The notes under the pieces were generated by a model. That model ran no database searches. It saw only the letters and a list, made by a program, of their open reading frames with translations, and was not told where the DNA came from. The position numbers and the translations under genes were made by a program. From Candidatus Poribacteria bacterium (GTDB lineage: Bacteria; Poribacteria; WGA-4E; WGA-3G), in the NCBI GenBank assembly GCA_963665235.2, contig CAXXLX010000001.1, positions 672,001 to 736,000 of the forward strand: a DNA stretch of 64,000 nucleotides, read 5' to 3'. Positions 984 to 62,201 of this stretch are shown here, piece after piece (position 1 is the stretch's first letter; every line of letters begins with the position of its first letter).

Positions 984-1185
984 GTAAAGATCACCCTGCT
1001 AAAGCATGGGTGCTTTGACATAGCGTAACCACACGTTCCCTGTCAAAGATTAAGTTCTTCACTACAGTAATATATCGGTATATCTGTGGTGGTGCACAAA
1101 GGTGTTTCGGATGCTCCCCAAGTCCGATGTAAACGCTGATATACCGATCTGGATGGGGAAATACAAACTCTACGGAGAATTACAA
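984..1185 (+). ncRNA. omegaRNA (HEARO-like) scaffold of IsrB; guide would be the 5' flank (~964-983)
   Basis: Non-coding ~200 nt upstream of isrB with stems CACCC/GGGTG, CTTTGACA/TGTCAAAG, TCGGA/TCCGA and loop TCCCCA complementary to TGGGGA; motifs shared with the 8877-9345 element. Confidence 0.8.
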
Positions 1186-1188
1186 ACT

Positions 1189-2217
1189 ATGTTTGTTCCT
1201 GTCGTTGACAAAAACCAAAATCCACTGATGCCGACAAAGCCTTCGCGGGCAAGGAAGTGGATACGAGACAAGAAAGCCACACCGTTTTGGAAGAATGGCG
1301 TTTTTTGTGTGCGCCTTAACGCCGACCCTTCGGATAGATACTTCCAACAGATATGCGTAGGCGTAGACCCCGGCAGTAAGAAGGAAGGCTTTACCGTCAA
1401 GAGCGAGGCACATACCTACCTAAATGTGCAAGCAGACGCTCACAACAAGGTTGGAAAGAAAATCGAGAAGCGTCGGACGTTGCGGAGAAGCAGACGCACA
1501 CGGAAATGCCCGAATCGAAAAAAGAAGCAGCACAACCTGTCGAACCGGAAGCGTATCCCTGCAGGCACACGTGCAAGATGGGATTGGAAACTTCGCATAT
1601 TAGATTGGTTGTCTAAACTCTATCCTGTTACACACGTCTGTGTTGAGGATATTAAGGCGCGGACAAAACAGTATCAAAAGCAGTGGAATCAGGCCTTCAG
1701 TCCTTTGGAAGTGGGCAAGCATTGGTTCTATTCAGAGGTAGAAAAGCGATGGGAACTCCTGACGATACAAGGGTTTGAAACCAAAGAGATACGCGAGCGG
1801 CTTGGTCTCAACAAGTCGTCAAAGAAGTTAGCTGAAACCTTTGAGGCACATTGCGTTGATAGTTGGTGCTTGGCCTATCACACCGTTGGCGGTTTAGAGA
1901 TACCCGACAATACCGATATATTCTGTATCTCACCGATACCGATACGCAGGCGAGAACTCCACAGACAAAATCCGCAGAAAGGTGGCAATCGCCCGCGATA
2001 TGGTGGCACCTTATTAGGCGATGGACTTGTTAAAAACACATTAATAAAGCACAACAAATACGGATTAACACGCCTTGCGGGTGTTAATGCTAAAGGACTA
2101 TTCTCTGTCTATTCAAAAGATGGACACCGATTAACAACGGGGGCAAAACGCACGGATTTTCAAGTGCTAACACGCTTGAACTTCAACTATAAAGGCGGAT
2201 TTTCCTCCCCCGCATAA
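1189..2217 (+). CDS. isrB: IsrB RNA-guided nickase (RRXRR/PLMP domain, split RuvC, no HNH)
   Basis: 342 aa from ATG 1189; PLMP motif (NPLMPT), RuvC-I VGVDPG, Arg-rich bridge helix RRTLRRSRR, RuvC-II VEDI, RuvC-III HCVDS; no HNH motif between II and III. Confidence 0.88.
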   Translation: MFVPVVDKNQNPLMPTKPSRARKWIRDKKATPFWKNGVFCVRLNADPSDRYFQQICVGVDPGSKKEGFTVKSEAHTYLNVQADAHNKVGKKIEKRRTLRRSRRTRKCPNRKKKQHNLSNRKRIPAGTRARWDWKLRILDWLSKLYPVTHVCVEDIKARTKQYQKQWNQAFSPLEVGKHWFYSEVEKRWELLTIQGFETKEIRERLGLNKSSKKLAETFEAHCVDSWCLAYHTVGGLEIPDNTDIFCISPIPIRRRELHRQNPQKGGNRPRYGGTLLGDGLVKNTLIKHNKYGLTRLAGVNAKGLFSVYSKDGHRLTTGAKRTDFQVLTRLNFNYKGGFSSPA

Positions 2218-2247
2218 ATGCTGGGGGTTTCCAATCCGAAGATTTTG

Positions 2248-2850
2248 ATGAAAAAGTTTTCTGTTTTATTAATCATCGCGATGACTTTTAGCATCACCCT
2301 AATCGGTTTTTCTAAGCGTGGTCCAGTTAATGGAAAATGGTACAACCGCGATAAAGATGTAGAAAAACGATGGACTGACCGTGAAACCGCTGACCCCGAG
2401 ATACCCGATTTCTATATAACGATTACAAGGGAAGGTGAAGATTCTGACGGGCCGGCGTTTAGTGAGAGTTATGCATCGGCTGATCAGCATCTGCTATATG
2501 CCTGGACATATATAGGTGCAAGAGGCTCTGCACCGCACGATGTATGGGAGTGGCGGGGGTCCGCATTCTTAGCTCATGATTGGGTTACAACGACCCCGGG
2601 ACCAAATCCTCATGCCGATTCAGGCGCTATTAAAGGGGACTTTACAAAAGAATTCAATGTGTATTTGAGAGAATTCGGTCACCTCCCACCTGAGGGCACT
2701 ATCTCTGATTGTCAGTCAGATGGTTGGGTAGCGTCAGACATAGCAAAGATCTCTCCCGAGGAACGTCATAGCACGTTAAGCCGAACGGATGATAACCATA
2801 GAGATATCTACATCAACGGGAAAAAACAGCAACCAGAGGATAACCCGTGA
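2248..2850 (+). CDS. hypothetical secreted protein
   Basis: Signal-peptide-like MKKFSVLLIIAMTFSITLIGFS; its ATG directly follows the IsrB element end. Confidence 0.7.
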   Translation: MKKFSVLLIIAMTFSITLIGFSKRGPVNGKWYNRDKDVEKRWTDRETADPEIPDFYITITREGEDSDGPAFSESYASADQHLLYAWTYIGARGSAPHDVWEWRGSAFLAHDWVTTTPGPNPHADSGAIKGDFTKEFNVYLREFGHLPPEGTISDCQSDGWVASDIAKISPEERHSTLSRTDDNHRDIYINGKKQQPEDNP

Positions 2851-7221: not shown

Positions 7222-8844
7222 CTATTTGAGCCGTTCTTGGATTTGCTGGTTCTCAGGTTCAATCGTTTGTGCCTGTTCCAAGGCTTGACGTGCTTTTTGA
7301 GGCTCGTTATTTTTCCGGTATGCGTCCCCAAGGTGCATGAGAATCTCCACAGTGTTCGGTAAATGTTGATTTGCAAGTTCAAGTGTTTCAACCGCCTTAG
7401 CGAAACGTTTCTGTTTGAAGAAAACCCATCCGAGGGTATCGAGGTATGCCCCATTTGTAGGCGATTTTTCAAGGGCGCGTCGGACTAAATTTTCCGCTTC
7501 ATCCAGGTTCGTGCCCTGTTCAGCGTAGAGATATGCTAACGCATTGAGGGCGTGTGCATGGTTAGGTCTAAGTTGGAGTGTTTTTCGGAGATATTTCTCA
7601 GCTTTCTCGAATTCCCCGTGAGTTTGGTAGATAGCAGCGATGCTGTATGTTCCATCTACGTGCCGGGGGTTTCGTGAAAGTAGTTGTGTGAAGATTTTTT
7701 GTGCAGCATCGAAGTTTTCGAAACTGAGGTAAACCTGTCCGAGTGCATTGAGTGCATTGTCTATGATGTTTAGATACATTCTACGCTGGGCCCGGTTTTG
7801 TGCGTTTTCTGCACGGGCCTCCGCAGCAGTAATCGTTTTTTGGAGATAAGTTTCCGCTGCAGAAATAGATTTATCAATTTCTGCTGTGCGCTCTCCGCTT
7901 GCCGCATAAGCCCGTCTTGCAATGTCCTGATGGACGAGCCCCATACCGAATGTGCCGTTAATGTCATTAGGCATCCACTTAAGGATTTGGGTAAAGACCT
8001 GCTGTGCCTCAGTCAACTTATCGGTGGCGAGGTAGAGGTGCCCGAGCGCGGTCAATGCTCGGACATCGCGTGGGTTAATTTTGACAACGCGCTGATATGC
8101 CTCAATTGCTTCCTGTGGTTTCTGCAGCTCTCGGTAGAGTTCGGCTAATTGCTTATGGAAACTCGGTTCAAATGGCATTACCCGTGTGAGTGCTTTGAGC
8201 GCTGTTTCGGCAGTGTCATATTCTCGAAGCTGGCGTGCTAGGTTCGCAAGCATCTCCTGCGCCTGTCTGTGGTCAGGGTCTAATTTCGTGATGCGTTTCA
8301 GGACAGTGACGATATTATCAACGTCACCGCCGGTATGGTAAGCACGGTATGCAAGGATTTGGGCAAGTTGCCACATAGCGGGTATGTAGTCAGCATTTAT
8401 TTTGAGAGCTTGTCGGCTATCCTGTTCTGCCCCCCGGATATCCTGCATTCTATATCGGAGCTGTCCCCGTTTGTAAAAGATATAAGCGGACGTAGGGTGC
8501 AGCTGTATGAGTGCATCGTAAACGCCCCTTGCCTCTGACAAATTTTTATCAAAACTCTCTAAGTAAACTGCCTGCATCAGTTGTGTGTAAATCGCCTTTG
8601 CGCTCTGTGCAGCCTCAGCGAGCTGCGCAGCCTCTGCTGACGTATCAACCGAAAGTAGTGGCGGTGTCTCTTGCGCAGATAGGGGTGTTCGCAATGTGAA
8701 AAATGTGAAACAAAAGAACAGACTCAATAAAACCAGCCCTGCAACTTTTTGTAGCCCTGCTCGGTGGGAGCAAACTTCTGATTGTGAACGTTTATGCAGA
8801 CGCGCTTTGTAAGCACACCTTCTGATTGAAACATCTTTCGTCAT
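7222..8844 (-). CDS. tetratricopeptide-repeat protein
   Basis: Multiple TPRs (ALNALAYLYA, YLDTLGWVFF); N-terminal TM/signal; AGGAG RBS. Confidence 0.85.
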   Translation of the reverse strand: MTKDVSIRRCAYKARLHKRSQSEVCSHRAGLQKVAGLVLLSLFFCFTFFTLRTPLSAQETPPLLSVDTSAEAAQLAEAAQSAKAIYTQLMQAVYLESFDKNLSEARGVYDALIQLHPTSAYIFYKRGQLRYRMQDIRGAEQDSRQALKINADYIPAMWQLAQILAYRAYHTGGDVDNIVTVLKRITKLDPDHRQAQEMLANLARQLREYDTAETALKALTRVMPFEPSFHKQLAELYRELQKPQEAIEAYQRVVKINPRDVRALTALGHLYLATDKLTEAQQVFTQILKWMPNDINGTFGMGLVHQDIARRAYAASGERTAEIDKSISAAETYLQKTITAAEARAENAQNRAQRRMYLNIIDNALNALGQVYLSFENFDAAQKIFTQLLSRNPRHVDGTYSIAAIYQTHGEFEKAEKYLRKTLQLRPNHAHALNALAYLYAEQGTNLDEAENLVRRALEKSPTNGAYLDTLGWVFFKQKRFAKAVETLELANQHLPNTVEILMHLGDAYRKNNEPQKARQALEQAQTIEPENQQIQERLK

Positions 8845-8876
8845 AAAATTTCTCCTTCTTCATCGCGCTTTGTCAT

Positions 8877-9345
8877 CAAAATATTCGGTGTGGAGACCCC
8901 CAGCATTTATGCGGGGGAGGAAACACCGCTCCCATTCGTTCTATATTTCCCCCCAAAGGGGGAGTCGGGTTGTTTTTTCGCCACAAGCCCGTAGGCGTTC
9001 CTCGCAGACTGTGCTGCTTCGTTCAACAGAACTCGCACTTTCTGTTTACTTGACCTGACACGGTATCTTTGAAAAAACAGGTAAGGCCCCTTTCGGGTTC
9101 TCCGCTTACGCGGGTATATGTTTCCCCATCCAGATCACATAAGCGTAGTGGGTTAAGACTTGGGGAGCATCCTTCAGTGAAATCGTCCAACCACAGACGA
9201 CCCACCTTTTTAGATAACCATACTTTGGACTGCCATGTCCAGCCTCTGCGATATATTACTGTAGTCAACAAGTTACCCTCGTCCCTGTAATAGCCTTGGC
9301 GGGCATCAGGGACAAGCCCCCATGCTTTAGCTGGGGGTTATTGAC
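8877..9345 (-). mobile_element. non-autonomous IS200/IS605-type element carrying a stand-alone omegaRNA (no nuclease ORF)
   Basis: Minus strand starts GTCAATAACCCCCAGCTAAAGCATGGGGGCTTG and ends TTCCTCCCCCGCATAAATGCTGGGGG...TTTTG|ATGA like element 984-2247; no IsrB ORF inside. Confidence 0.85.
9070..9345 (-). ncRNA. orphan omegaRNA/HEARO-like scaffold (3' boundary approximate)
   Basis: Shares ACTACAGTAATATATCG, GGATGCTCCCCAAGTC and GATCTGGATGGGGAAA with 984-1185; stems covary. Confidence 0.8.
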
Positions 9346-9359
9346 CTGAGCGCGAATGC

Positions 9360-11825
9360 TTATGTGGATTCGCTTTGTAAGGGCAGCTCTTCGCTCAAAT
9401 CCGAGGACTGATGGTTAAGCACCCCGACATCCACAATAGTTTCGTCCGGTTGTAACGTCATGAGCCGGACCCCCTGCGTAGCTCGCCCAATGACCCGAAC
9501 GTCACTGACCGCCATGCGCGTCACGTATCCTGTTGAACTAATGAGTACGAGTTCGTCATCATCTGACACTAAGTTCGCGGAGACGACAGCACCGTTTCGG
9601 GTTGAACGTTTAATAGCGGTTACCCCAACGCCGCCGCGCTTTTGCGACCGATAGGCGGATAAGCCGGTCCGTTTACCGTAACCGTTCTCTGTAACAACGA
9701 GGAGTGACTGGGTTTCATCAGGTGCACAGACCATTTTAACAACAAAGTCGCCTTCGGCAAGTCGAATGCCCCGGACCCCGCGTGTAGGGCGTCCCATGCT
9801 GCGCACCTCAGCCTCGTTAAACCGGATAGAATTGCCGTTATGACTAACAAGGACAACATCATGATTTCCACTTGTTAGCCGCGCGCCGATGAGTAGGTCG
9901 TCCGTATCCAACTTAACCGCAATAATTCCTGTAGAGAGCGGATTCCGAAATTCCCGCAATGGAGATTTCTTGACAATACCGTGCTTTGTGGTCATCAAAA
10001 CATAGAGGTCCTCCTTAAATTCTCTGACTGGAACGAAGGCAGTAATAGTCTCGGTGTCACTCAAACGTAGCATATTTACCGCTGCGCGACCGATTGCTTG
10101 ACGGGTGCCCTCAGGTATTTCAAAAACCTTCATGACATAACACTTGCCAAGGTTTGTAAAAAAGAGCAGAGATTGATGCGCCGTTGCAATAATCAGATGC
10201 TCCAAGAAATCGCCATCTTTAGTGGGACCGCCTTTGATGCCGACCCCTCCACGATTTTGGCGGCGATACGTGTCCATCGGAATCCGCTTAATGTATCCAG
10301 AATGCGTCAACGTGACAACCATCTCCTCATCGGCGATAAGGTCCTCCATTTCAAAACTTTTGACCTCCGAAACGATGTTAGTGATTCGTTCATCTCCATG
10401 TTCCTCCCTCAATGCGTCTAATTCCTCCCGGATGATGTTGGTGATAAGTTCTTCATCTGATAGGATAGCGCGAAGTTCAGCGATACGTTCAAGGAGGTCG
10501 CCGTATTCATCGTTAACGTTTTGCCGTTCCAATCCTGTCAACTGGCGTAAGGTTAGAGATAACACTTCGCGTGCCTGAATATCAGAGAATTCATACTGCG
10601 CCTGTAGGAATTCTCTGGCAGCCTGTGGGGTTTCAGCTGTCTGCACAACCTCAATGACCTCTTCTATATTTTCTAATGCAATACGGTACCCCTCTAAGAT
10701 GTGTGCGCGGCGTTCACACCGTGCCAACTCAAATTCGGTTCGCCGTCGGACAACATCCCGCCGATGGGATAGATAGTGATGCAAAATTTCAGTGAGGGTT
10801 AATATTTGGGGCAGGCCATCTACAAGACAAAGCAGATTCGCAGCGAAATAATCCTGCATCTTTGTATGTTTATACAGCTGATTTAAGATAACTTGCGGCA
10901 CCTCGCCTCGCTTGAGTTCTATTACGATACGGATTTCCTTATCGGATTCGTCCCGGATATCTGAAATCCCTGTAATCGTTTTCAAGTTCACACAATCGAC
11001 AATCCGCTCAAGTAGGTGATTTTTCTTAATCTGATACGGAATTTCGGTGACAACAATTTGTTCTCGGTCACCCCGAGTTTTGCTGTTCGTTATCGGTTCA
11101 ATTTCTACCCTCGCACGCAGTGTAATACTGCCTTTGCCGGTAGCATACATATCCTTGATACCCTTTTTACCGACGATAATTCCGCCTGTGGGAAAATCAG
11201 GGCCAGGTATAAATTCAAGCAGCTCTTCAACAGATGCATCCGGAAAATCAAGTATATGCAACAGGGCATCCACAACCTCTACGAGGTTATGTGGTGGGAT
11301 GCATGTTGAATAACCGACCCCGATACCGGTAGTGCCGTTGACAAGAAGGTTCGGGAGCAATCCAGGCAGGACGGTGGGCTCCTCCATAGAATCCTTATAG
11401 TTGGGTTGAAAATCAACTGTATCTTTACCAATATCCCGGAGGAGGGTCTCAGCAATCTTTGCAAGCCGACACTCGGTGTAACGCATTGCCCCGGGGGGGT
11501 CATCGTCAATAGACCCAAAATTGCCTTGTCCATCAATTAAGGGGTAGCGCGTGCTGAATTCCTGCACGAGTCGGACAAGCGTCCCGTAAATCGGGCCATC
11601 GCCGTGCGGGTGAAAGTTCTTCATAACCTCACCGACAACCGCAGCACACTTATCGTACGGACGCTCATTCGTCAAATTGAGTGAGCCCATGGCATAGATG
11701 ATTCGGCGTGCACTCGGTTTCAAACCATCCCGTACATCAGGGAGTGCTCTATTGGTATTAACACTCATGGCATAGGTGAGGTATGATGTTTGCAGTTCCG
11801 CTTCTATTGAACGTTTTTGAATCAT
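9360..11825 (-). CDS. gyrA: DNA gyrase subunit A
   Basis: RALPDVRDGLKP, HPHGD, AMRYTE catalytic Tyr, GyrA-box QNRGGVG, C-terminal pinwheel repeats. Confidence 0.97.
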   Translation of the reverse strand: MIQKRSIEAELQTSYLTYAMSVNTNRALPDVRDGLKPSARRIIYAMGSLNLTNERPYDKCAAVVGEVMKNFHPHGDGPIYGTLVRLVQEFSTRYPLIDGQGNFGSIDDDPPGAMRYTECRLAKIAETLLRDIGKDTVDFQPNYKDSMEEPTVLPGLLPNLLVNGTTGIGVGYSTCIPPHNLVEVVDALLHILDFPDASVEELLEFIPGPDFPTGGIIVGKKGIKDMYATGKGSITLRARVEIEPITNSKTRGDREQIVVTEIPYQIKKNHLLERIVDCVNLKTITGISDIRDESDKEIRIVIELKRGEVPQVILNQLYKHTKMQDYFAANLLCLVDGLPQILTLTEILHHYLSHRRDVVRRRTEFELARCERRAHILEGYRIALENIEEVIEVVQTAETPQAAREFLQAQYEFSDIQAREVLSLTLRQLTGLERQNVNDEYGDLLERIAELRAILSDEELITNIIREELDALREEHGDERITNIVSEVKSFEMEDLIADEEMVVTLTHSGYIKRIPMDTYRRQNRGGVGIKGGPTKDGDFLEHLIIATAHQSLLFFTNLGKCYVMKVFEIPEGTRQAIGRAAVNMLRLSDTETITAFVPVREFKEDLYVLMTTKHGIVKKSPLREFRNPLSTGIIAVKLDTDDLLIGARLTSGNHDVVLVSHNGNSIRFNEAEVRSMGRPTRGVRGIRLAEGDFVVKMVCAPDETQSLLVVTENGYGKRTGLSAYRSQKRGGVGVTAIKRSTRNGAVVSANLVSDDDELVLISSTGYVTRMAVSDVRVIGRATQGVRLMTLQPDETIVDVGVLNHQSSDLSEELPLQSEST

Positions 11826-61795: not shown

Positions 61796-62201
61796 GCTTT
61801 TGGTCCTCAATATACTTTTTGACAACTTCTAAGGAGGTGCTACCTACAGATGATATAAATTTAGAACGCGTCCACAAACAAGGCAAGCGAGATTTTAGGA
61901 ATGCCAACTCCTCACGTAACACCCTAGAGGTAAACCCTTTTATCAGCCCAACCGTCCGTGTAACTGGCACTTTTGGGGTGTTTTCTATTATCATAAGCAC
62001 GGGGTCTTCCATAACCTCGCTGGCACACACCTTAAAATCTAACTCGGTTTGTTTAGAACAGATTAGATGGTGCAAGCGTTTTTGTATCGGTTCGGTTAAA
62101 ACTTGGTGCCGATACTTCGGACACCAGACGACATGATACTGACAACTGTAAACAAGGTTTGTCTCGGAGGACCAATGCTTTTCTCCATTCTTAATAAACA
62201 T
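61788..62201 (-). CDS. tnpA: IS200-type Y1 transposase TnpA (HUH motif degenerate)
   Basis: YHVVWCPKYR, KGFTSR, LWTRS, KYIEDQ; DPVL where DHVH is expected. Confidence 0.88.
   Translation of the reverse strand: MFIKNGEKHWSSETNLVYSCQYHVVWCPKYRHQVLTEPIQKRLHHLICSKQTELDFKVCASEVMEDPVLMIIENTPKVPVTRTVGLIKGFTSRVLREELAFLKSRLPCLWTRSKFISSVGSTSLEVVKKYIEDQKHV

Follow-up and report, generated by a model that had tools for sequence, protein, structure and literature searches.

The window analysed here is a stretch of 64,000 nucleotides from a Candidatus Poribacteria genome. On its minus strand, downstream of gyrA and co-oriented with it (9360–11825, minus strand; Pfam DNA_topoisoIV, E=2.8e-152, and DNA_gyraseA_C), lies an ORF-less mini-element of 469 bp (8877–9345, minus strand; GTCAAT...ATTTTG). 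Read directly from the sequence, it starts with GTCAATAACCCCCAGCTAAAGCATGGGGG at 9345 and ends with ...TTTCCTCCCCCGCATAAATGCTGGGGGTCTCCACACCGAATATTTTG at 8877, and the same limits are given by full copies elsewhere in the genome and by a DNA contig (X5) discussed below. The element is followed by ATGA (8873–8876, minus strand), which on the opposite strand reads TCAT, the target of TnpA. This ATGA lies 29 nt before the ATG of a TPR gene, and the window copy is thus not at a start codon. For the sole open frame of at least 80 codons (9023–9271, 82 aa, TTG start), Pfam gave no match, and the copies differ by non-triplet indels; a small-protein reading was rejected on these grounds. The element thus carries no protein-coding gene, as is the rule for PATEs, and the claim of the initial annotation that it encodes no nuclease is borne out; what it does carry is an IsrB-type omegaRNA scaffold.

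The ends are those of an IS200/IS605 element, as defined by imperfect subterminal hairpins on one strand and no terminal inverted repeats. The hairpins CCCCCAGCTAAAGCATGGGGG and CCCCCGCATAAATGCTGGGGG are both subterminal, both on the minus strand, and conserved and covarying across copies. The left one (9317–9337, minus strand) is likely recognized by TnpA and at the same time forms one of the stem-loops of the RNA (helix 2, with compensatory change in 5/7 pairs). The right end (8877–8933, minus strand; HMM match, E=9e-18) consists of an SD-like GGGAG, an outer stem CGGTG/CACCG that encloses CCCCCGCATAAATGCTGGGGG, and a 9-nt tail, AATATTTTG. The outer stem (helix 19) shows compensatory change in 4/5 pairs.

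A full-length IsrB element is present in the same window at 984–2247 (plus strand), with the left end and omegaRNA at 984–1188, the IsrB ORF at 1189–2217 and the right end reaching 2247. It starts with GTAAAGATCACCCTGCTAAAGCATGGGTG at 984 and ends with ...GATTTTG at 2247, followed by ATGA at 2248–2251. The initial annotation had placed the mini-element correctly and had recognized that the two share their end architecture, but its boundary for the IsrB element was one base short. The ORF matches Pfam RRXRR (E=1.4e-32), without an HNH match, and DtIsrB of PDB 8DMB (E=9.6e-38), with the DPGSK, EDI and HCVD stretches aligned. Seven further copies of this element are 94–99.7% identical to it. The genome as a whole has 23 RRXRR matches, of which 21 have a frame open over at least 210 aa, and about 20 RRXRR/IsrB ORFs are therefore available in trans; the mini RNA may use the IsrB they encode.

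The initial annotation had made the mini-element a sister of the IsrB element that lies 7 kb from it, a relationship that the data do not support. The left end of the neighbour scores 31 bits against the mini (nhmmer), compared to 124.5 bits for the C1:120253 family (88% identity over positions 1–130), and few left ends of the genome are as distant. The mini belongs instead to a lineage of its own, whose additional stem-loop and internal module (MOD) occur in no IsrB-linked element of the genome. The accompanying claim, that the mini did not arise from the neighbour by a recent deletion, stands, as do the stem differences cited for it (CCCCC/GGGGG vs. CACCC/GGGTG and GTCCCTG/CAGGGAC vs. TTTGACA/TGTCAAA), which are present in the sequence.

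The omegaRNA scaffold spans 9087–9345 (minus strand) and comprises S1, the left-end hairpin, SL2, S3 with internal stem-loops, and two 3′ hairpins. Its assignment as IsrB-type is based on a sub-threshold HEARO match, on nhmmer homology to IsrB-linked left ends and on covariation in helices 1–8, where 43/53 pairs show compensatory change. The initial annotation had proposed a search with HEARO or omegaRNA covariance models. HEARO (RF02033) does align with 9345–9081, yet at 31.1 bits (E=0.0025) it stays below the gathering score of 83, and at gathering thresholds Rfam has no match in the whole window. Sub-threshold HEARO matches are also found at 16 left ends of the RRXRR-linked kind. From the transposon end on, the scaffold is homologous to RNAs encoded directly upstream of IsrB genes, namely the left ends at C1:120253, 1404400 and 1658347 (E=8e-36) and at 1443734 (E=2e-35), all of which precede RRXRR ORFs. 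All single-stranded motifs conserved in IsrB-linked omegaRNAs are retained (e.g., GGATGCTCCCCAAG and GATCTGGATGGGG). The CTCCCC and GGGG partners of the nexus and adaptor pseudoknots are present as well, and they are nearly invariant, so that covariation is uninformative there.

In IsrB systems the guide lies directly 5′ of the scaffold, and the published IsrB TAM is NTGA (PMC9581776). By the start of the scaffold, the 20 nt of 5′ flank at 9346–9365 (minus strand), which contain the gyrA stop codon TAA, occupy the guide position, as the initial annotation had proposed, and the ATGA flank it had noted is compatible with that TAM. If transcribed together with the scaffold, 9346–9365 would be used as the guide.

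Two features set the mini RNA apart from every IsrB-linked omegaRNA of the genome. One is the extra stem-loop (9176–9207, minus strand; helix 7), in which 8/8 pairs show compensatory change and which is absent from the 15 IsrB-linked omegaRNAs compared. The other is the MOD, a conserved module of about 110 nt (8966–9076, minus strand) delimited from 24 aligned minis, over which it is conserved and its helices 9–18 covary. It forms a multi-helix junction followed by an H-type pseudoknot (CGCC/GGCG and CGGGnTTG/CAACCCG) with an invariant A-rich linker. In this genome the MOD motifs are confined to minis, save two stray matches to one motif, and a place for the module inside full-length elements was rejected since the motifs are absent from these. 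A search of 8870–9090 (MOD and right end) against Rfam at E≤10 gave matches at chance level only (best E=2.3), indicating that the MOD is no described ribozyme or riboswitch. Since the mini RNA differs by a stem-loop of ~43 nt and the MOD, its compatibility with the resident IsrBs is an assumption.

The structure of the full mini RNA is under selection. It has 88 pairs, with 92.8% of cells paired compared to 34–41% when the partners are slid, and compensatory change in 66/88 pairs compared to 21–29 in the slid controls; none of 500 shuffles attained the observed values. Conserved G-U pairs are many and are found on the mini strand only. Orthologous minis of four species are 91.5–97.7% identical over the first 400 nt, and the flanking DNA 79–98%.

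By nhmmer, left ends occur at 31 places in the genome (E down to 4e-79), of which about 21 immediately precede an RRXRR ORF, and right ends at 45 (E<1e-8). The ATGA seen initially at the two elements of the window follows all 10 listed copies. MOD-bearing copies number eight: five are full (77–100% identity), two have a left end of the neighbour type and one is 5′-truncated; three of the eight are 96–100% alike. The flanks of the full copies C1:337433–337901 (98.7%) and C1:19462–19938 (96.2%) are unrelated, and the base preceding the left end varies between copies.

An empty allele of the window locus exists. In the DNA run X5, which samples a related population, one contig joins 8874 to 9344, skipping exactly 469 nt. 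Its junction reads ...CTCAG GTGA CAAAG, which prompted consideration of a GT|GA target (with the element reading CAATAA...GAT). This was rejected, as at a different locus 12/12 orthologous empty sites read flank|ATGA; the element is present at the three occupied sites compared there. The GTGA allele most plausibly reflects an A/G difference, the strain being 1–9% diverged. The 12 empty sites confirm that insertion is at N|ATGA, without target duplication. Such presence/absence polymorphism is consistent with TnpA-catalysed excision and integration.

The genome has 13 Y1_Tnp matches. An IS605 element with TnpA and TnpB (C2:~338530–340337) has the mini-type left hairpin at both ends. Hairpins that match it closely (CCCCCAGCTAAAGC, two variable bases, GGGGG) are found in the IS605 elements at C2:339792, C1:32727 and C1:3153209, in one of them as the reverse complement, and two of these three also have a right-end-like terminus with the CGGTG/CACCG stem. 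There is thus good support for mobilization of the mini by the TnpA of an IS605 element whose hairpins match its own.

The lineage extends well beyond this genome. The MOD is present in 18 of the 81 genomes searched in the family, and all 59 matches to a strict pattern, searched in 185,579 species genomes, belong to Candidatus Poribacteria. In relatives, the right end is always within about 250 nt of the MOD, and the order IsrB-type omegaRNA scaffold, extra stem-loop, MOD and right end is kept. This layout from left end through MOD to right end, 409–611 bp long, was seen in all loci examined, in at least three genera, with identity down to 68–77%. From its sequences, then, the mini lineage is an old one, restricted to sponge-associated Poribacteria. 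A member with an adjoining IsrB gene was not seen and a full-length counterpart was not found; of scaffolds with the long spacing, 0/17 in three relatives (G053, G067 and G009) and 0/8 in this genome adjoin an RRXRR ORF. An RRXRR match is present in 15/18 MOD-bearing genomes vs. 33/63 without MOD, relatives among these not being independent. The three that have the mini without an RRXRR match (at E≤1e-25) are G011, G014 and G020, the last being 94% complete in 3 contigs.

How the element is expressed is suggested by where it inserts. Most family members are exactly between the SD and the ATG of a host gene, a placement seen in minis as well as in full-length elements. An SD-like motif at the right end is found in 20/24 minis, and the 9-nt spacer in 18/24. 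A promoter belonging to the element itself was rejected: a consensus scan of 8700–9500 gave one weak plus-strand site and no promoter-like site on the minus strand, which fits read-through without proving it. The two terminator-like sites are on the plus strand, antisense to the mini. RNA contigs cover the family. In metatranscriptome contigs of one study (X7, X8), the summed depth over 8940–9347 is up to ~2100 vs. 0–4 in the flanks, and in a DNA run of the same study the mini reaches ~1070 vs. ~34; each RNA value adds up the mean depths of contigs from many copies and organisms, and some DNA may have been carried over into the RNA libraries. One RNA contig spans the end of gyrA across the empty site. 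Parts of the stretch are without cover in X4, X7 and X8.

We favor the reading that the mini is a non-autonomous, PATE-like IS200/IS605 element of the ISC/IsrB type, which moves by TnpA in trans, is expressed as read-through RNA and uses IsrB-guided nicking of the empty site. On balance, we consider this probable. At the DNA level, a Y1 transposase (TnpA) acting in trans would excise and insert the mini as single-stranded DNA, immediately 5′ of ATGA and without target duplication. The likely donors are the IS605 copies (TnpA and TnpB) with end hairpins matching those of the mini. Transcription would most likely be by read-through from the upstream host gene, here gyrB-gyrA. With start and processing as we infer them, the product would be ~400 nt long and comprise the 5′ flank (guide), the IsrB-type scaffold with the extra stem-loop, and the MOD, to which we would ascribe a role as well. 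The RNA would then be loaded onto IsrB from full-length elements, the scaffold closest to its own being that of the C1:120470 family. After excision, the complex could nick the empty site (flank and ATGA), favoring restoration or retention of the mini.

Not all of the evidence requires IsrB. No case links the long-type scaffold with MOD to an IsrB ORF, covariation is strong in the MOD and extra stem-loop, and three of the 18 MOD-bearing genomes are without an RRXRR match. In one of these (G020), the orthologous copy is still 97–97.7% identical to those of G078 and G096. Together with the position of most members exactly between SD and ATG, and with the conserved SD-like motif in fixed geometry at the right end, these facts would suit an omegaRNA-derived RNA that has become independent of IsrB, serving in cis as a 5′-UTR module that preserves translation of the host gene behind it, or as a processing or stability element, and depending on TnpA for its spread. 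We hold this to be unlikely. Retention of all the single-stranded motifs of IsrB-linked omegaRNAs is hard to explain without a protein partner, minis are enriched where RRXRR is present (15/18 vs. 33/63), the window copy is off the start codon and the MOD resembles no known family of ribozymes or riboswitches. Another view is that the mini is a passive PATE whose RNA has no function, the TnpA hairpins alone mattering and the interior being a decaying relic of an IsrB left end. Ordinary IsrB elements shortened by deletion are indeed present in the genome (C1:1512440–1513091, 652 bp, and C2:382529–383487, 959 bp), and the window copy is intergenic, where nothing need be selected. But a relic would hardly keep its layout over at least three genera at 68–77% identity, in Poribacteria only, nor show compensatory change in three quarters of its pairs, G-U pairs conserved on one strand, and orthologous copies that evolve more slowly than flanking coding DNA. 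Layout, covariation and ortholog conservation have already largely refuted this view, and we give it very little credence.

The mini RNA might also be a competitor or hyperparasite, absorbing the IsrB of full-length elements and so gaining homing and retention to their cost, with the added RNA raising its stability or affinity. The dependence on TnpA and IsrB supplied by others is in line with this, as are the lineage-specific additions to the RNA, the high summed depth of RNA contigs over the family and the enrichment of minis where IsrB genes are present. This reading differs from the best explanation in fitness consequences alone, however, and with eight minis to ~21 full-length elements in the genome there is no sign of displacement; it appears improbable to us. 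A bolder extension, which we regard as possible but doubtful, is that the minis are an old, self-standing, nuclease-less lineage of omegaRNA-element descent, with RNA domains of its own, that parasitizes TnpA and IsrB, docks between SD and ATG, has its guide and scaffold driven by host promoters, and offers the host its right end as a replacement ribosome binding site. The site would be a split one, in which a GGAG is followed by a 5-bp stem around the TnpA hairpin and by 9 nt leading to the ATG. If true, a transposon would have solved its own expression and its tolerance by the host through RNA alone.

IscB, IsrB and TnpB are thought to act as homing devices for the elements that encode them. 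The present lineage keeps the RNA alone over long evolution, adds RNA domains to it and conserves it better than neighboring genes, which shows that the RNA itself can be the unit of selection. The lineage makes the use of IsrB in trans directly testable, and its dozens of diverged natural copies provide a ready map of covariation. Docking between ribosome binding site and ATG suggests how elements can get a flank-derived guide transcribed without their own promoter, and leads to the testable hypothesis that host-gene translation is rescued by the right end. In tool development, the extra domains may suggest how omegaRNAs supplied in trans could be stabilized. In a limited search we did not find the start-codon docking or the Poribacteria lineage in print, and the supplements of the papers cited below may hold similar elements.

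Many HEARO RNAs are without an ORF. The mini RNA resembles HEARO (RF02033) in being at the 5′ end of ISC elements and in its first helices and the CTAAAG-type hairpin, which align; since IscB-type RNAs underlie the model, the IsrB-specific and lineage-specific parts are missing from it. With ISC1 and IsrB transposons, as these are described (Kapitonov, 2016, PMC4810608; PMC9581776), the mini shares the 5′-GT start, the N|ATGA target of ISC elements, the NTGA TAM, and ends in common with IS605 elements that have tnpB on the other strand; the start of the scaffold is like that of the DtIsrB omegaRNA (Hirano et al., 2022, PMC9581776). It differs in the absence of an IsrB ORF and in an RNA of ~400 nt, the published ones being ~262–300 nt. 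The IStrons, in which IS605 is joined to a group I intron (PMC13565253), similarly combine an extra structured RNA domain with a possible location within transcription units. An intron or IStron reading of the mini was rejected, however: copies vary in the base that precedes the left end, no intron family matches, and nothing suggests splicing.

Gene-less omegaRNA elements that depend on a nuclease in trans are already in print. Standalone omegaRNAs are reported to work with IscB (Altae-Tran et al., 2021, as cited in PMC9581776) and, like the mini, are guide-RNA loci without an adjacent nuclease gene, the nucleases being elsewhere in the genome. In our case the putative partner is the nickase IsrB, and the guide-RNA locus forms an entire transposon in which neither end is missing. 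Closest are the PATEs that encode omegaRNAs in need of a nuclease in trans (Meers et al., 2023, 10.1101/2023.03.14.532601). The absence of a protein gene, the subterminal hairpins of IS200/IS605 type, the presumed mobilization by TnpA in trans and a scaffold dependent on the nuclease of another element are common to both. The PATEs described there are TnpB/IscB-related elements from Geobacillus that the authors regard as derived from full-length IS elements, whereas the mini has an IsrB-type scaffold and no full-length counterpart that we could find, belongs to an old lineage that spans at least three genera with identity down to 68%, and has added to its RNA an extra stem-loop and the MOD.

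The mini-element (window 8877-9345, minus strand) begins with GTCAATAACCCCCAGCTAAAGCATGGGGG at 9345 and finishes with TTTCCTCCCCCGCATAAATGCTGGGGGTCTCCACACCGAATATTTTG at 8877, followed by ATGA. gyrA (9360-11825), with gyrB ahead of it, lies upstream, and a TPR gene (ATG at 8844) downstream. The neighbouring IsrB element (984-2247, plus strand) begins with GTAAAGATCACCCTGCTAAAGCATGGGTG and has the same right-end core, which in the alignment closes GATTTTG|ATGA. Its ORF (1189-2217, plus strand) carries the RRXRR domain that marks IsrB (Pfam, E=1.4e-32) with no HNH match, and resembles the IsrB of the solved structure 8DMB (E=9.6e-38). No credible gene is found in the 469 bp of the mini-element, where the sole ORF (82 aa, TTG start) has no Pfam match. 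The initial annotation was right in describing an ORF-less element with ends in common with an IsrB element.

The same annotation made it a sister of the IsrB element 7 kb away, and here it fails: the neighbour's left end scores 31 bits against it (nhmmer), versus 124.5 bits for the IsrB family of C1:120253 (C1 and C2 are contigs of the window's own genome, G000), whose left ends are the closest (88% identity over positions 1-130). The closest right end belongs to the C1:3490444 family (98%). Judged by such comparisons, the mini-element is a lineage of its own and no sister of the neighbour. A stem-loop of about 43 nt (9207-9176) and an internal RNA module, MOD (9076-8966, minus strand), are both missing from the 15 IsrB-linked omegaRNAs compared. 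Within G000 the MOD motifs are confined to mini-elements, save two stray matches to one motif. Of the 81 genomes of the same family that were searched, 18 have MOD, always as left end, MOD and right end within 413-611 bp and without an ORF. A strict three-anchor pattern gave 59 matches among 185,579 species genomes, all titled Candidatus or uncultured Poribacteria; they comprise 48 different sequences, of which 47 are complete elements (409-579 bp). The long spacing diagnostic of the extra stem-loop occurs 17 times in three genomes (G053, G067 and G009), in no case with an RRXRR ORF within 500 nt downstream.

The RNA was assessed in an alignment of 24 mini-elements (A3; 68-100% identity). The structure scored has 19 helices with 88 pairs and was itself partly derived from the same 24 sequences. 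In it, 92.8% of cells hold a standard pair, versus 34-41% when partners are slid by 1-3 columns, and 66 pairs are changed on both sides, versus 21-29; none of 500 shuffles reached any of the observed values. In the extra stem-loop, 8 of 8 pairs are compensated. MOD (helices 9-18) folds as a junction closed by TTCTC/GAGAA and then an H-type pseudoknot whose A-rich linker is invariant. Many conserved G-U pairs (e.g., 191-201, 321-413 and 186-204) would be C-A mismatches on the opposite strand. Because they would fail there, the structure belongs to the omegaRNA-sense strand and is most simply RNA. The covariation argues that the mini RNA is under selection. Identity among the four orthologous copies is 91.5-97.7% in the first 400 nt, against 79-98% in flanking DNA, which may reflect either constraint above that of the neighbouring genes or renewal at the same site.

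As DNA, the mini-element is real, mobile and polymorphic. G000 (5.3 Mb, four contigs) has 23 RRXRR matches, 13 matches to the Y1 transposase (TnpA), 31 left ends and 45 strong right ends. Full-length mini copies lie at C1:337433 (98.7% identity to that of the window), C1:19462 (96.2%), C1:532866 (82%, with insertions) and C1:504553 (77%); those at C1:1154421 and C1:1888074 join a left end of the neighbour's type to the interior of the window copy, and that at C1:419334 is 5′-truncated. The flanks of all these copies are unrelated. When contigs from public runs were compared with window 8600-9600, a contig from DNA run X5 joined 8874 to 9344, skipping 469 nt, and one from RNA library X7 had the same joint; hence an empty allele of the gyrA-TPR site is present in a related population. 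Internal-deletion derivatives of IsrB elements also exist in G000 (C1:1512440-1513091, 652 bp; C2:382529-383487, 959 bp). Since they coexist with MOD-bearing mini-elements, two routes to ORF-less elements are at work in this genome.

The X5 empty allele reads GTGA at 8873-8876, where the window has ATGA. GTGA is compatible with NTGA, the target motif (TAM) of IsrB, and incompatible with the TCAT target presumed for TnpA. It also brought into consideration an alternative GT|GA target (Kapitonov et al.), which was tested at a second locus. There, a mini-element common to G020, G078 and G094 is placed at ...GGTATCTTA|GTCAATAAC...GATTG|ATGAACAACG, with the same flanks in G096, and twelve other genomes of the genus read ...GGTATCTTA|ATGAACAACG. 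These empty orthologous sites rule out GT|GA and define the element as GTCAA...TTTTG, with ATGA as part of the target. This agrees with the N|ATGA class (Kapitonov, 2016) and the NTGA TAM. At this site L044 (G020), L056 (G078), L059 (G096) and L057 (G094) are occupied, and L087-L099, in twelve other species, are empty. Flank identity to G020 is 91% for the empty G108 and 86% for the occupied G094. By this measure the occupied species are apparently not mutual nearest relatives, which suggests that the element was lost scarlessly or gained repeatedly at one site.

IsrB-type elements, full-length and mini, mostly sit exactly between the ribosome-binding site (SD) of a host gene and its ATG, in the orientation of the gene. 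Among 30 paired elements of G000 with an ATGA flank, the ATG opens an ORF of at least 95 codons in 19, versus 18% of all 39,572 genomic ATGA sites; in 9, versus 3.5%, that ATG also comes first among the starts of the reconstructed ORF (binomial p=6e-7 for this second comparison). Elsewhere in Poribacteria (loci L115-L173), 30 of 38 different mini insertions open such an ORF or reach the locus end and 17 are at first starts, often with a textbook AAGGAG 6-10 nt ahead of the insertion point. Such docking would supply a host promoter and a guide derived from the 5′-UTR. Examples in G000 are window 2248-2251, C1:337902 and C1:505003. The mechanical ORF at 2218-2850 (plus strand) starts within the right-end hairpin of the neighbouring IsrB element, ATGCTGGGGG; the likelier true start of this host gene is the in-frame ATG at 2248, in the target ATGA (MKKFSVLL...). 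The gyrA-side copy is an exception: its ATGA is 29 nt ahead of the ATG of the TPR gene, which has its own ribosome-binding site. The right end (8877-8933, minus strand; A3 columns 575-662) has a conserved order, running from an A-rich stretch through GGAG and, directly after it, a covarying 5-bp stem around the TnpA hairpin to about 9 nt and the host ATG. An SD-like motif is found in 20 of 24 mini-elements, and a 9-nt spacer from stem to ATG in 18. A testable guess is that the right end forms a "split" ribosome-binding site, which would replace the one displaced by insertion and rescue host translation.

Three IS605 copies in G000 with TnpA and TnpB (C2:339792, C1:32727 and C1:3153209) have a hairpin close to that of the mini-element (CCCCCAGCTAAAGC, two variable bases, GGGGG); the exact version in the left end of the mini-element is at C2:~338530. 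In two of the three, the terminus (...AGCGGTGT..hairpin..CACCGAAGA..GATAA) resembles the mini right end. The natural reading is that a TnpA of the C2:339792 type would move the mini-element in trans. The window's own TnpA (61800-62153, minus strand) belongs to another IS605 type (hairpin CCCAAGTCTAAAGACTTGGG, end at ...CCCTTCAA) and is probably not the mobiliser. In the former elements (C2:~338530-340337 and the C1:32727 and C1:3153209 regions) TnpA is 145 aa and TnpB, on the opposite strand, 407 aa; C1:646150-646585 is a version (about 430 bp) with no gene. Some Y1-like genes are flanked by arrays of short palindromic repeats (C1:33100-33500, C1:1178800-1179200 and C1:831300-832600), with units of ...TATAAACATACCGCCCCGATGGGGCTAGGTT... 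in one and ...CTCCTATGTAGGAGCGTGCTGTGCACGCGAT... in another; these are similar to REP/RAYT-type arrangements.

The best-supported reading is that the mini-element is a mini-transposon needing TnpA, that read-through would yield an omegaRNA-like RNA guided by the flank, and that IsrB supplied in trans would nick the empty site with this RNA. Support is good for the DNA part, and a function of the RNA is supported by its conservation. Transcription of the family has weak to moderate support: in contigs of RNA libraries X7 and X8, from one study, summed depth reaches up to ~2100 over 8940-9347 and 0-4 in the flanks, and in the DNA run of that study up to ~1070 versus ~34, all of them averages per contig that pool many copies and organisms, with DNA carry-over into the RNA libraries possible. 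One RNA contig spans the gyrA end through the empty site, compatible with read-through from gyrA; no promoter-like site was found on the minus strand of 8700-9500. The IsrB step we infer from scaffold homology, the TAM fit, the ~20 IsrB ORFs present and co-occurrence, RRXRR being found in 15 of 18 MOD-bearing genomes versus 33 of 63 others, with relatives not independent. Against an obligate link to IsrB stand the RNA additions peculiar to the mini lineage, the absence of a full-length counterpart, and three genomes (G020, 94% complete in 3 contigs; G011; G014) that have the mini-element with MOD and no RRXRR match at E≤1e-25. The initial interpretation is partly supported: the ORF-less element with an omegaRNA scaffold is kept, close kinship with the neighbour is dropped, and nicking by IsrB stays conditional.

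In the cited papers, ISC elements start with GT, target N|ATGA and have ends in common with IS605 (Kapitonov, 2016); IsrB is ~350 aa, with an omegaRNA of ~300 nt and an NTGA TAM, and standalone omegaRNAs function with IscB (Hirano, 2022); and PATEs, gene-less IS200/IS605-type elements, "often encode omegaRNAs" that require a nuclease in trans (Meers, 2023, preprint). Since these cases precede it, the concept of the initial annotation is not new. In a limited literature search we found no description of a lineage of ORF-less IsrB-type elements that has gained RNA domains, of its restriction to Poribacteria, or of SD/ATG docking. For specialists of OMEGA systems and transposons, the significance lies chiefly in the lineage-level findings and less in this single copy. 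The mini-element is a known kind of element, and the variant of it is new.
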